Part shown: one piece after another, positions 41,901 through 56,900 of the stretch
How positions within the stretch are numbered: position 1 is the first letter of the stretch
Layout: every line of letters starts with the position of its first letter
Assembly (NCBI RefSeq): GCF_030384885.1
Contig: NZ_CP128613.1
Source of the DNA: Escherichia coli
Lineage (GTDB): Bacteria > Pseudomonadota > Gammaproteobacteria > Enterobacterales > Enterobacteriaceae
DNA length: 64,000 nt
Reading direction: 5' to 3' (one strand)
Made by a program: the position numbers

Positions 41901-44900
41901 GTCAGTGAACCCTCCTCGTCTTTGCCATTAATTTCCAGCTTACGCAATGACGTTTTGATAGCATTAACCTGCGCCGAAAATGGCGTCACAACACCAACAA
42001 CTTTGTACAGTGGTTCCCCGTAATGGCGCTCTATATCATCCTTATGTGCCACCAGCCATGCTGCTATTGTTTCAGCTTCAAGAGGGTTATAACGGCTCCC
42101 CCCATTTGGCTTCATGCCTCTACCATCAATATGTAAATATCCCATTGCGGGGAAAATCGTCCCTTTTTCTATCCCTCTTTTAGGCTGCAACTTACCGTGA
42201 TAGCAAAGTGAGTTACAGTAGCCGATGATGTTATTGAAACAGCGACGATGCTCATACAGATACATTCCGCGCTCGAACTTGGGATCATACTGGTAGTGAG
42301 AGTTAAACTGGGCTACCTGCATTACGCTGCCAGATGCTGCACTTTTTCCAGACCCACACACGTGAGTATATGTATTTATTAACTCTTCCTGAGTGCCACC
42401 AGAAATAATATTCTCCTCAAGCATATTGCCCATATCAGTGACGGGTAGACAATTCCAGATTGGAGCTATTTGCTCCGTATCGCCAATCACCAGCGCTTTC
42501 TTCGCCAATGCAAAGGAAGCTGCAGCAACCTCCGGGAGTACCTGCCCGGCTTCATCGACAATCAGTAAATCAGCAAAGTTATATAAATAATTATTATCCG
42601 ATGTTCTATCGCCACCAAAAGATTTTCTTCTGTTCATATGGTAAGGCAACATGTAGCAGGTCATCACCACACAAGGAGTAAGTTTCATTCTTCTTAGCCA
42701 ACGAGCCTCGGCGATAGTTATCCCGGTAATTCCTTTTTCTTTTTGCAAATTATCTATAGCTGCCATATCAATCAGCCAACGCCCCTCCCAATAATGGGTC
42801 GCTACCAAGAACGCTGGAAAACGAATCTGAGTATCGGCAAGTTCATCCGCTCCTGAAAGATTCAATTCATCGTCACCTCTGTAACCCAAAGCATAAGTCA
42901 ACTCACGCCATTGTTTTGCAGCTTCTATTTCGCGTCGGGCTATATCCTTCGCATAGTTGATGTTCTGTTGGCACTCATCCTGCTCCTTTTGCGTTTTAGC
43001 AATCAAACTATCAATAAATTCATCAATATCTTCGGGATAATTTCCCTGGAACGATGTCATTCTTGTGCCAAACGTAGAGTCCAGGAAGAGGTTAATCTGG
43101 TAATGGCGTTTAGTACGAACAGCAGGAAGCCATGACAAAACCGCATACACTAGCGACTCATCAGCACGGTATTGCTGCCACTGCTTTTTACCTCTGGTTA
43201 AAAGTGAAATTTCATTGCCAATATTGAGAAGACGTGTATTTTCGTCCTGAAGATACTGGTCGAGATTCTCACTGATGGCTCGCTGTTCATGGCGGATATC
43301 ATTAAGCCTGCGCCATGCGGGTTCGATTTGCTGAAGTTGAATAAACTGTGAAGTTAAACGTTCATGCAAAAGCGTCACTACATGCTCTGGTGAATTGCAC
43401 TCTCCAGCTCCAAACGCCACCTCCGCTTTTTCAAGGTAAAATGCCCGGGCTTTTTCCAGATATTCCTGGGATTCAACGTGGTTAAAAAAATCTTCAGTCT
43501 GGTATTTCTTCGCAGCCTCAACCTGACGGCTTTTAGACGGAAAATAAGCGCCATAGCTTATTACCTCCGGCAACCAACGACCAGCCATTACGCCAAAACC
43601 AGTAGAGAAATCTTTTCCAAAGGCTTCAATAATATTGGTGACGGCCTGATTGTTAGTTGATGTGGCAATAATTACAGGAGGTTCAGCTTGATTAAGTGCG
43701 GCTCTAGTCCATTCGGTGGCGATAATAGAAAGCACCAGCGTAGTTTTACCCGTTCCCGGAGGACCGTTAACAGCGAGCATATCCCCCTGCTGTTGAGTCA
43801 GATAATGGCTCAGGGCATCGCGCTGCGCCACTGCCAGCGGAAACTTATCGCCGGAATGCCCCAGACGTTCGCAGAACATAGCATTCTTAGCGAGAAGTGG
43901 CTCTAGTGGAACCATTTCATTTGAGGCAAAACGCGTTAATAGAGGAACCTTAACCTGGCTCATCAGCAGATGGTCATACAAAGGCAGGATATGAACACTG
44001 GCCCCTACATGCTGGCTAGCTTTAACAATATAACCGTATCCAGCCCGTTCGTATGGCTCAGATGTAGCGACCCAATTTCCAGCGACGTTTCTTAAAAGGT
44101 TATCTGACTGTTGAAGATAATTTTGCCAATGCTGACGATACCTGGCATGGCGTTCCGCTTTCTCTTCGTCAGTTTCTTCGTAATGTTCTGGTTGACCTTC
44201 ATTAATGGTGGCTGTGTTATGCGTAGTTTTGTATTTGTCATATTGCACCAACTCACCAATAGAAAAATGACCGGAAGGGAGAGGTTCAAGCAGATCGCGG
44301 GGAATAGTGGCTGAAGCGGCAGGAAACAAAAAACCTTCCCTATTAAGAAGAGCGGAGGTAACCAGTGGCGTAATAATTGCGGGTGCACCTGCCGTTTGCT
44401 CTTTGCCATGCTTTACAATGCGGTTCCATACCTGGGGCCGTAACACGACTTCAACGTTTTTTACAGACTCCCCTTCACCGTCAAAAAATGCCCGAATAGT
44501 TTCGTCATCCAACTGCCCTGCGCTGATATTTATCCACCGAATGAATGATTCTGTATCTTTACGTGAAAACGTTCCTTTGCCAGATTCGGCGTCAGCTAAG
44601 GAGTTGCGCCAGTATGAAGTGAATCCCAATGTATTGCTGTCCATTTCTCATTCCGTGACATAATAGAAATCATTGATTTCATTGATGTAAATATTACTTA
44701 TGATTAAACATTGTCCACGATGCGAGCGCGATCGCAATAAATATTGTGCCTGGAGGATGGATTAGATTTTCTGAAAGAGCTAAATCCTTAATAGATAAAC
44801 GCGTACATACTTGGTTCGGTATTCTTAAGGGATTTAATATGGATTGAACCAGGTTGACGTTAGTTGAAAAAAACAGTGGAAAAGATTTGTGTGGCGCGGA

Positions 44901-53900: not shown

Positions 53901-56900
53901 TCTTTGGCAACCTTCTCGAAAGTAATAATCTCTTTCGCCTGCTCTTCTTTCACAGCACGCTTATGCTCACGAGGATCGATACCAGCAGCTACCAGCTTTC
54001 TGGCCTCTTCCCTTTTCTTCCTGGCATCCGCCAGCGAAACATCCGGGTAAACGCCGAACGCCATCAAATGTTGTTTACCACCAAAACGGAAACGAAATCG
54101 CCAATACTTTGAACCGCCAGGTTTTACAAGTAAGGACATGCCGTCGCCGTCAACAAGTGAATACTCTTTCTCCTCAGGTTTCGCAGAGCGAACTTTAGTA
54201 TCCGTTAGGGCCATAATGGTCTTCCTTCCATTGGTATCTCGTGAGTATACAAGCAATATCGAATCGGCAAATATACTCATTAGTATACTCACAAGCCTGT
54301 TGATGTGGGTTGAGTCAGGTTGACTTCAGTTGAGGGGAAAAGCTGGAAAAGCCTTGTGTAGCGCGGATTTCAGGCATAAAAAAAGACCTCAGTTGAGGTC
54401 TATTTACATACTTTTGGTGCCGAAGGCCGGACTCGAACCGGCACGTATTTCTACGGTTGATTTTGAATCAACTGCGTCTACCGATTTCGCCACTTCGGCA
54501 CTGAAGAGGTATGCGGAAAACGTTGTGGATTATACCTGTCACGCGCCACCATGCAAGCGCCAGCTTGCTCCCACCTCGCTAAGTGCTGAAATTTTCAGCA
54601 TTACATACAGCGATGTGCAACCTTTGTCACACTCCAGGCACCACGCCCTACCATGCTCTACACTTCCCAGACAACACCAGAGAAGGACAAAAATATGTCG
54701 ATGATAAAAAGCTATGCCGCAAAAGAGGCTGGCGGCAAACTGGAAGTTTATGAGTACGATCCCGGTGAACTGAAACCACAAGATGTCGAAGTGCAGGTGG
54801 ATTACTGCGGGATCTGCCATTCCGATCTGTCGATGATCGACAACGAATGGGGATTTTCACAATATCCGCTGGTTGCCGGGCATGAGGTGATTGGTCGCGT
54901 GGTGGCGCTCGGGAGCGCCGCGCAGGATAAAGGTTTGCAGGTCGGTCAGCGTGTCGGGATTGGCTGGACGGCGCGTAGCTGCGGGCATTGCGACGCCTGT
55001 ATTAGCGGTAATCAGATCAACTGCGAGCAAGGTGCGGTGCCAACAATTATGAATCGCGGCGGTTTTGCCGAGAAGTTGCGTGCAGACTGGCAATGGGTGA
55101 TCCCACTGCCGGAAAATATCGATATCGAGTCCGCCGGGCCGCTGTTGTGCGGCGGTATCACGGTCTTTAAACCACTGTTGATGCACCATATCACCGCCAC
55201 CAGTCGCGTTGGGGTAATTGGTATTGGCGGGCTGGGGCATATCGCTATAAAACTTCTGCACGCAATGGGATGCGAGGTGACGGCCTTTAGTTCGAATCCG
55301 GCGAAAGAGCAGGAGGTGCTGGCGATGGGTGCCGATAAAGTGGTGAATAGCCGCGATCCGCAGGCTCTGAAAGCACTGGCGGGGCAGTTCGATCTCATTA
55401 TCAATACCGTGAACGTCAGCCTCGACTGGCAGCCCTATTTTGAGGCGCTGACGTATGGCGGTAATTTCCACACCGTCGGTGCGGTTCTCACGCCGTTGCC
55501 GGTTCCGGCCTTTACGCTGATTGCGGGCGATCGCAGTGTCTCTGGCTCTGCTACCGGCACGCCTTATGAGTTGCGTAAGCTGATGCGCTTTGCCGCCCGC
55601 AGCAAGGTTGCGCCGACCACCGAACAGTTCCCAATGTCGAAAATTAACGACGCCATTAAGCATGTACGCGATGGTAAAGCGCGCTACCGAGTGGTCCTGA
55701 AAGCCGACTTCTGATCCCTTTGCCGGGTGCCTGTCGCCCGGCTTTTAAATCTCTTTGGAAGGCGTCTCGCAATCTGCTGAATTTAGCGGTGAAGAGTGCG
55801 CAGCCGTTGCCTATACTCCAGGCAGGAAACTGGAGGATATCTCATGAGCGAACCCCTGTTAATTGCCCGCACGCCGGACACAGAACTGTTTTTGCTGCCG
55901 GGAATGGCTAACCGTCACGGGCTGATTACTGGCGCAACGGGGACGGGTAAAACCGTTACGCTGCAAAAACTGGCAGAGTCATTGTCGGAAATCGGTGTTC
56001 CGGTGTTTATGGCCGATGTGAAAGGTGATTTAACGGGAGTAGCGGAGGAAGGTACATCTTCGGAAAAACTGCTCGCAAGGCTTAAAAATATCGGCGTCAA
56101 TGACTGGCAACCACATGCTAATCCGGTGGTGGTGTGGGATATCTTTGGCGAAAAAGGCCACCCGGTGCGGGCGACGGTTTCAGACCTGGGGCCGCTGTTG
56201 CTGGCGCGACTGTTGAATCTCAACGATGTGCAATCTGGCGTGCTGGATATCATCTTCCGCATTGCTGATGATCAGGGGCTGTTACTGCTCGACTTTAAAG
56301 ATTTGCGGGCGATTACCCAGTACATCGGCGATAACGCCAAATCCTTCCAGAATCAGTACGGTAATATCAGTAGCGCATCGGTTGGTGCCATCCAGCGCGG
56401 GCTGTTATCGCTGGAACAGCAAGGCGCAGCACACTTCTTTGGTGAGCCGATGCTGGATATCAAAGACTGGATGCGTACCGATACCAACGGTAAAGGCGTT
56501 ATCAATATCCTCAGCGCCGAGAAGCTTTATCAGATGCCGAAACTGTACGCCGCCAGCCTGCTGTGGATGCTTTCAGAGTTATATGAACAATTGCCTGAAG
56601 CGGGCGATCTGGAGAAACCAAAACTGGTGTTTTTCTTCGACGAAGCACATCTGCTGTTTAACGATGCGCCACAGGTACTGCTGGATAAGATTGAGCAGGT
56701 GATAAGGCTTATTCGCTCAAAAGGCGTGGGCGTCTGGTTCGTTTCGCAAAACCCGTCGGATATCCCGGATAATGTGCTCGGCCAGCTAGGTAATCGCGTT
56801 CAACACGCTTTGCGGGCTTTTACGCCCAAAGATCAGAAAGCAGTAAAAGCTGCGGCGCAAACCATGCGGGCCAATCCGGCGTTTGATACCGAAAAGACAA

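Follow-up and report, generated by a model that had tools for sequence, protein, structure and literature searches.

The tRNA gene leuX in the stretch of Escherichia coli chromosome analysed here (64,000 nucleotides of RefSeq assembly GCF_030384885.1, contig NZ_CP128613.1, hereafter the window) adjoins a genomic island bracketed by an imperfect direct repeat of ~115 bp. The explanation favoured for this arrangement, with a probability of roughly three in four, is P4-type site-specific integration combined with tandem accretion onto an older, integrase-less remnant. The newer element, a defence and toxin–antitoxin island equipped with a P4-family tyrosine integrase, would span 44954-54414 as a 9,467-bp insertion, and its integrase would have inserted it site-specifically at the very 3' end of leuX. 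Directly distal to it would lie the integrase-less stump of an older related element, made up of a leuX terminator, a "B-type" spacer, decayed arm sites, yjhR/MkoC and a fragment of an SspE gene.

Both elements would belong to a single family whose tRNA-side attachment (att) arm is composed of the leuX terminator (~54 bp), a conserved spacer (~60 bp), tandem arm-type integrase (Int) sites and the int gene. The arm of the old element, pushed 9.5 kb away, would resemble the arm of the new element at the tRNA, so that two related arms would present themselves as a ~115-bp "direct repeat", and the true exchange region would measure at most ~14 nt. The order of these events is what we infer from the arrangement.

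An insertion at the 3' end of leuX

ARAGORN identifies a single tRNA gene in the window, an intact leuX (tRNA-Leu, CAA; 54415-54499, minus strand), whose last 20 nt (54415-54434, TGGTGCCGAAGGCCGGACTC) are the annotated attP core of the satellite phage P4. A repeat search of the window pairs 44877-44953 with 54344-54420 at 96% identity and, offset by 1 nt, 44834-44867 with 54300-54333 at 79%. The 60-bp identity of 44894-44953 and 54361-54420, the starting point of a preliminary description of this DNA, proved exact on direct comparison, with a copy-to-copy spacing of 9,467 bp, and the weaker flanking homology noticed at the same time reaches 44834 and 54300. The chance of an exact 60-nt repeat in 64 kb is estimated to be of the order of 1e-27 or less. 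Beyond the 60-bp run, the distal copy reads TGGTG-CGAAGGCCG before diverging, where leuX has TGGTGCCGAAGGCCGGACTC. It keeps 14 of the 15 terminal bases of leuX, one C being absent; this attR core (44948-44961, minus strand), delimited from the junction sequences and their alignment, is one base short of leuX, as the preliminary description had it, and is 14 nt long, not 13.

Four complete E. coli genomes, recovered with a 701-bp probe for the distal junction, have an empty site, with yjhR and tRNA-Leu under a single 560-bp match at 99.1% identity. In MFDS1022581, aligned base for base, the order is yjhR, the sequence of the distal repeat copy ("copy B", 100% over 120 nt), intact leuX and ahr. 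The suggested comparison with other leuX loci thus defines the empty site, and the island proposed between the repeat copies is a genuine insertion; since empty-site genomes exist, the 115-bp segment cannot be dismissed as ordinary conserved chromosome with no variable element between its copies. Both the insertion/empty-site polymorphism and the junction sequences can be read directly from these genomes. The same attB also receives other occupants, namely a P4-like satellite in 2017-02-2CC and a different island in AF16, each lying between copy B and leuX.

The notion that no mobile element is involved, and that the repeat arose by chance or by an ancient segmental duplication with nothing variable between its copies, has a negligible probability in light of these data. 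Nothing in its favour was found, and presence/absence polymorphism with exact junctions refutes it. Moreover, no genome with at least 80% of 44000-55500 was found, and the GC content is 0.32-0.40 in the middle of the island as opposed to ~0.54 on the ahr side.

Composition of the ~115-bp repeat

Rather than the recombination core, the ~115-bp repeat represents the tRNA-side arm of the element family, in which the leuX terminator is joined to a spacer. In the proximal copy, a terminator block ("T-block", 54361-54414, minus strand) forms part of the 60-bp exact repeat and holds the leuX intrinsic terminator hairpin (54384-54401) with its T-run, and also TGCCTGAAATCC; it is recognised by repeat identity and as a terminator-like site, and is invariant in the aligned E. 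coli junctions. Next to it lies the "A-type" spacer of the tRNA-side att arm (54300-54360, minus strand), which was delimited by the repeat search, is ~80% identical to the distal copy and is conserved in elements of Enterobacter and Pluralibacter. The leuX terminator recurs in the distal T-block (44894-44947, minus strand; hairpin at 44917-44934), whose identity to the empty site assigns it to the resident sequence.

In an alignment of eight junctions, no E. coli context, the K-12 intB element included, shows any variation in the 56 bp directly 3' of leuX. Past this block three spacer types are found: the A-type in the proximal copy of the window and at the internal junction of O157, a K-type in K-12 and N61, and the B-type in copy B and the empty sites. 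A cross-species scan for the leuX 3' end, in which one genome per species was used and the downstream sequence extracted, places the ~115-nt family also in Enterobacter, Pluralibacter, E. albertii and Citrobacter, where three features recur downstream of it at constant positions: two 7-8-nt motifs in tandem at 12-bp spacing, a further copy in inverted orientation, and the integrase start codon. The integrase starts 186-199 nt from the tRNA in seven sequences (the proximal copy of the window, K-12, and five from Enterobacter, Pluralibacter, E. albertii and Citrobacter), and at the 13 other junctions examined, arm motifs and an integrase gene, or what remains of one, come after the repeat. Separately, an A-type arm was observed next to leuX, at 94% identity, on the 501-kb chromosomal contig AFYI01000007.1 of Salmonella Infantis (filed as phage); the element family is therefore also found in Salmonella. 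Misfiled Salmonella contigs were all that a search of the phage collection with the tRNA-side arm brought up, P4 being missed since the core it shares is too short.

These comparisons bear on a simpler scheme, one part of which, an attP carrying host-like flanking sequence, had been raised at the outset. Here a single element would have entered a site with no older island: the distal ~115 bp would be native chromosome, and attP would hold a long host-like block comprising the tRNA end, the terminator and the flank. We regard this scheme as unlikely while according it appreciable weight, as copy B directly follows intact leuX in the empty-site genomes and the terminator hairpin sequence tracks the host genus (E. 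coli, Enterobacter/Citrobacter and other types), not the integrase lineage or element type. Repeated exchange or homogenisation of the terminator block between host and elements is suggested. In Serratia marcescens, moreover, the terminator and TGCCTGAAATC are shared with no integrase within 448 nt. Against a single element, the spacer past the terminator occurs solely in integrase-linked arms in all other contexts examined. The idea of a host-like flank in attP thus holds in part, and only for the 54-bp terminator block, which tracks the host genus; further evidence on both sides comes from copy B itself and is considered below.

Crossover position and the missing base

In the window, the crossover can be mapped only to the 60-bp identical run, a circumstance that favours the view that RecA-dependent homologous recombination (e.g., after transduction or conjugation), and not the integrase, installed or moved the island, using the 60-115-bp homology together with the leuX-ahr side. 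The terminator blocks also look homogenised within hosts, and the cargo of the leuX locus, catalogued as hotspot #37, often lacks recognisable mobility functions (PMC10121019). The main ground for rejecting this route is the A-type island of A30, which has no homology left of TGGTG: its two terminator blocks diverge right up to that sequence, and its junction nevertheless lies at the same nucleotides, which argues for site-specific and not homologous exchange. All three A-type junctions (window, A30 and W) share TGGTG-CGAAGGCCGCACCGC, so that an element-specific tRNA-like fragment, together with the far-side arm motifs, lies at identical nucleotides in three flank contexts. With an attP-like architecture resembling that of P4 and an intact integrase in addition, homologous recombination is a very improbable means of entry.

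The missing base is a signature of attR in this family and not a product of local decay. The one-base-short attR recurs in the window, A30, W, a distinct element of O157 86-24 (internal junction) and two P4-like lineages, and is absent from the attR of EDL933-type and AF16-type elements; leuX is always intact. The exact terminator block followed by TGGTGCGAAGGCCG occurs in 298 E. coli records. Where a P4-type attR lies beside the block, 6 of 140 genomes match the intact-core query at no less than 99% identity and the rest differ, the base being absent in every differing junction inspected. In IMG/VR, 31 loci contain TGGTGCGAAGGCCGGACTC, joined to a wide variety of host terminators on one flank and of right arms on the other, and the intact version followed by AAA is present in only 1 locus. 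The one-base-short fragment is, in sum, the dominant form among leuX-targeting P4-family elements. Mutation after integration, or an assembly error, is not favoured as the source of the missing base, which recurs across many element lineages and host terminators.

Both core forms exist. The annotated core of laboratory P4 is 20 bp long with an intact CC, and strain 100117 carries an intact-core P4-like prophage that is ~97% identical to those of N61 and O157 strain 144 and whose integrase has the same protein accession as that of O157 strain 144. Searches of IMG/VR for free attP forms of P4-like elements, in which the P4 left arm was attached to a core of either 19 or 20 bp, returned zero hits for both.

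The distribution of the short form is consistent with a missing base that would be carried by the attP of the element. With such a shorter core, the effective crossover, and hence strand exchange, would have to fall within the final ~6 nt of the tRNA gene (GCACCA). Extended to natural leuX-targeting P4-family elements at large (satellites and integrase-only islands alike), the proposal of a 19-bp attP core with exchange confined to GCACCA is tentative, and we lean against it. If it were true, the tRNA-like segment of attP would serve Int as a core-type binding site and would not act as an "identity block" that restores the tRNA; the built-in heterology would leave attR with a defective core, which might bias directionality or prevent the re-use of attR by later elements; and the 20-bp core of laboratory P4 would be a minority form. 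The 19-bp core, deduced from junctions, is the sole part of the finding that is possibly new.

Candidate arm-type sites and the layout of the attachment region

The motif GAGTATAY occurs eight times in the window, compared with 2.1 occurrences expected, and none of 100 shuffles reaches eight; the two island ends (45024-45043 and 54243-54290) account for five of the eight. At the tRNA end, candidate arm-type sites (54243-54290) comprise a tandem minus-strand pair (54271-54278 and 54283-54290, 12-bp spacing) and an inverted copy (54243-54250) just upstream of the int start, a layout that matches the P4 arm repeats at 3942-3965 and 3915-3926. At the far side, a candidate tandem pair (45024-45043, minus strand) consists of GAGTATAC twice, again with 12-bp spacing, and is conserved in the A30 and W junctions. 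It lies 62-81 bp from the core, and the corresponding P4 repeats (4151-4174) lie 54-77 bp from theirs. In the annotated attP of P4, the core is flanked on either side by two 12-bp repeats in tandem, and a further, inverted repeat stands at the int start. The match of the att architecture to that of P4 is thus directly observed, as is the homology of the integrase to P4 Int.

The motif sequence varies with integrase lineage (GAGTATA, GCGGGTA/GTGGGTA and GTTGGTA/GATGGTA, with a GGGGCAT-type in P4) at positions that stay fixed, which is the behaviour expected of arm-type sites. The proposal that the end motifs are such sites accordingly draws support from enrichment, from positional agreement with P4 and from co-variation with integrase lineage, and the GAGTATAY motifs are predicted on these sequence criteria to be bound by Int. 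The tandem pair and the inverted copy upstream of int also constitute a natural co-variation series for arm-type site specificity.

The proposed older remnant and stacking in other strains

Copy B is the sole member of the ~115-nt family seen without an integrase behind it; yjhR starts 303 nt from the tRNA end instead. Its B-type spacer (44834-44893) is followed by what alignment and an in-register test suggest to be a weak, decayed trace of tandem arm motifs (~44789-44833), the two together occupying 44789-44893 on the minus strand. In this test, which replaced a local-alignment shuffle test for decayed arm sites, the 45 nt past the 115-nt block agree in register with the A-type arms of Enterobacter and Pluralibacter at 24 of 45 positions (binomial P ~1e-4) and with other lineages at 13-15 of 45. 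Copy B is read as a decayed A-family arm that has lost its integrase, and this significant in-register trace of A-type motifs speaks against a single element.

To the left of the distal copy lie yjhR, an SspE-like fragment, nanS, nanM and nanC. The full-length yjhR (41129-44644, minus strand) encodes MkoC of the Mokosh type II system (helicase and PLD nuclease; 1171 aa), as indicated by Pfam and by an end-to-end PADLOC MkoC match of 1464 bits, whereas in K-12 the gene is a truncated C-terminal pseudogene and homology to K-12 ends at window position 42356. Between nanS and yjhR, a 5' fragment (~250 bp) of an SspE-like gene (40646-40892, plus strand) was recognised from annotations and from a BLAST match to O157 strain 144 (91.5%). 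The full-length SspE-like gene is found in O157 strain 144, where it neighbours a truncated older integrase, and in AF16, where it neighbours yjhR. The arrangement suggests that the oldest island boundary adjoins nanS. A search for a further copy of the tRNA core at the outer limit of the older remnant gave no match with three or fewer mismatches except leuX. The genes behind copy B are thus strain-variable accessory defence genes, a further difficulty for the view that the sequence beyond the repeat is simply native chromosome.

Stacking of elements with intact second integrases is directly observed in other strains. At the equivalent junction, E. coli W has an intact second integrase and N61 a full-length one, and the integrase is truncated or vestigial in A30, O157 strain 144, EDL933, 86-24 and 504838; that a second integrase still stands at these junctions in W, A30 and O157 again tells against a single element. 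Tandem accretion at leuX is common, and the window would represent a degenerate end state of it. In closely related O157:H7 strains, three different elements (in EDL933, 86-24 and strain 144) were seen between leuX and the same truncated-integrase island, which indicates rapid turnover of the tRNA-proximal occupant in O157 with the distal remnant fixed.

Several points weigh against tandem accretion onto an older remnant as proposed here. Among the matches to the distal-junction probe, none had an integrase following the B-type spacer, a result that also speaks for a single element; the older element is a putative one, deduced from its traces and not seen intact. Compared with the window's own A-type arm, copy B agrees in register at 18 of 45 positions (P ~0.03), and the gapped local-alignment shuffle test for the decayed arm is marginal (P ~0.03-0.04). 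At least the first ~54 bp of the repeat may simply be native leuX flank. An AlpA-type recombination directionality factor is, finally, absent from the window. Weighed against these points, the second possibility envisaged in the preliminary description, an older related island that lost its int-proximal part, still offers the best fit, given a copy B without an integrase as opposed to integrase-linked arms elsewhere.

A longer relative and the decay of the island

In 2013C-4282, both window junctions are present with a 21.3-kb element between them, and the window island is 99.99-100% identical to this element apart from two internal deletions. The deletions, of ~8.9 kb and ~2.9 kb, meet at 48378-48909 and are associated with microhomologies of 6-7 bp. 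They removed part of radC, a DUF932 gene, a YagK/YfjJ-type gene, an AlpA-family gene, GTPase and WYL genes, most of hsdR and most of hsdM. The AlpA-family gene (PF05930, E=3e-10) lies at 14249-14467 of the 2013C-4282 locus, inside the ~8.9-kb window deletion. Because of these two deletions relative to 2013C-4282, the window island is a decayed deletion derivative without its probable excision cofactor, and the element is probably no longer able to excise unaided.

Gene content of the island

The P4-family tyrosine integrase (52946-54214, minus strand; 422 aa) is apparently intact, carries the Pfam domains Arm-DNA-bind_3, Phage_int_M and Phage_integrase, and is 57% identical to P4 Int over 411 aa (E=2e-176). 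It is annotated as a complete coding sequence in a stretch of 2013C-4282 that is 100% identical to the window, and its gene lies 200 bp from the leuX 3' end, reading away from the tRNA, with the non-coding arm between. Next to it, a pseudogene (51855-52775, minus strand) of an SspE-like/HNH "phosphorothioated DNA-binding restriction endonuclease" is split by an internal stop; the assignment draws on Pfam HNH_2, PADLOC HNH and mREase_IV, and the RefSeq pseudogene in identical sequence.

Two plus-strand genes follow: one for a 5'-nucleotidase family protein (50764-51777; PF06189, E=5e-119), which is the candidate defence gene PDC-S08 (PADLOC, E=3e-135), and one for a hypothetical 181-aa protein (50146-50691) with no family match in Pfam or PADLOC, located in the AT-rich part of the island (GC 0.32-0.35). 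As the PDC-S08 gene and the unannotated open reading frame (ORF) are paired in the most AT-rich part of the island (50146-51777), they may form a two-gene candidate defence module.

An orphan type I restriction–modification specificity subunit, hsdS (48906-50090, plus strand; Pfam Methylase_S, PADLOC Specificity_I E=3e-164), adjoins the debris of its system (48378-48909, plus strand), in which BLAST against 2013C-4282, junction sequences and annotation reveal a 307-bp internal hsdR fragment (48378-48684) fused to the hsdM 3' end (48685-48909). The remaining genes, all on the minus strand and assigned with Pfam, encode a type IV toxin–antitoxin pair (47541-48248) of CbtA toxin (47541-47882) and CbeA/YeeU antitoxin (47913-48248), a DUF4942 protein (46593-47450), a ParE-family toxin (45990-46265) with a ribbon-helix-helix antitoxin (46269-46541; the pair at 45990-46541) and, closing the element at its far end, a helix-turn-helix (Cro/C1-type) regulator (45078-45884) that is also the terminal gene in A30 and 2013C-4282. 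To the right of leuX lie ahr and yjgR. No P4 satellite genes (alpha primase-helicase, sid/psu/delta or the Icd/epsilon region) were found among the island ORFs, and the island is not a P4 satellite.

Comparison with known systems

The island shares with P4 its target tRNA, a core overlapping the last ~20 nt of leuX, a related integrase and the arrangement of putative arm repeats, with two tandem copies at 12-bp spacing per side and an inverted copy at the int start. It differs in lacking the replication and hijacking genes of P4 (alpha primase, sid, psu, delta and the cos region), in carrying defence and toxin–antitoxin cargo, in its GAGTATAY arm motif as opposed to the GGGGCAT-type of P4, and in holding only 9+5 nt of tRNA-like sequence. 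In addition, P4 and P4-like prophages have no terminator block on the tRNA side, whereas the tRNA-side arm of the island possesses both the leuX terminator copy and the conserved spacer.

The K-12 leuX element (intB; "cryptic prophage PR-Y"/KpLE2) occupies the same site in the same orientation, has the same 56-bp terminator block and an integrase gene ~80% identical at the DNA level, and ends in the yjhR-nanS region. The K-12 element differs, however, in its spacer, its GTTGGTAC-type arm motif, its pseudogenised intB and a different cargo of ~40 kb, as well as in a truncated yjhR and the lack of a second block copy near yjhR.

leuX corresponds to hotspot #37, the most occupied of 41 E. coli defence hotspots (PMC12707154), for most occupants of which the mode of mobilisation was not readily determined (Hochhauser et al., 2023; PMC10121019), and it also serves as the site of PAI II-536 and other pathogenicity islands (PAIs) of extraintestinal pathogenic E. 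coli (PMC7545054). The window island is an occupant of this hotspot, as its flanks (ahr/yjgR on one side and yjhR/nanS/nanM/nanC on the other) and its cargo (hsdS, the SspE-like pseudogene, PDC-S08 and MkoC) attest. In common with the other occupants, it has a leuX-anchored locus, an arm-type integrase next to the tRNA, and defence cargo of type I restriction–modification, phosphorothioation-related and other kinds; the difference is that attL, attR, the empty site and the att architecture are here defined for one integrase-only occupant. Together with the empty-site genomes and the 21-kb relative, the window therefore provides a fully resolved example, with attP reconstructable, at a hotspot of unclear mobilisation.

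Tandem islands at tRNA and tmRNA genes are a familiar pattern, in which each further integration at the regenerated tRNA end displaces the earlier elements outward, with repeated att fragments remaining. The ssrA islands of Dehalococcoides and PAI II-536 at leuX are reportedly examples of such arrays, the latter being said to be flanked by an 18-bp repeat. The arrangement in the window departs from this pattern in that the older member would have no integrase and the repeat would be lengthened by homologous arm sequence, not by a long core. Long "repeats" at tRNA islands can hence come from the homologous arms of related elements, which matters for the automated calling of island boundaries. 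As an integrase-only island at a known hotspot, probably stacked on an older remnant, the leuX island of the window refines known biology and does not change it.

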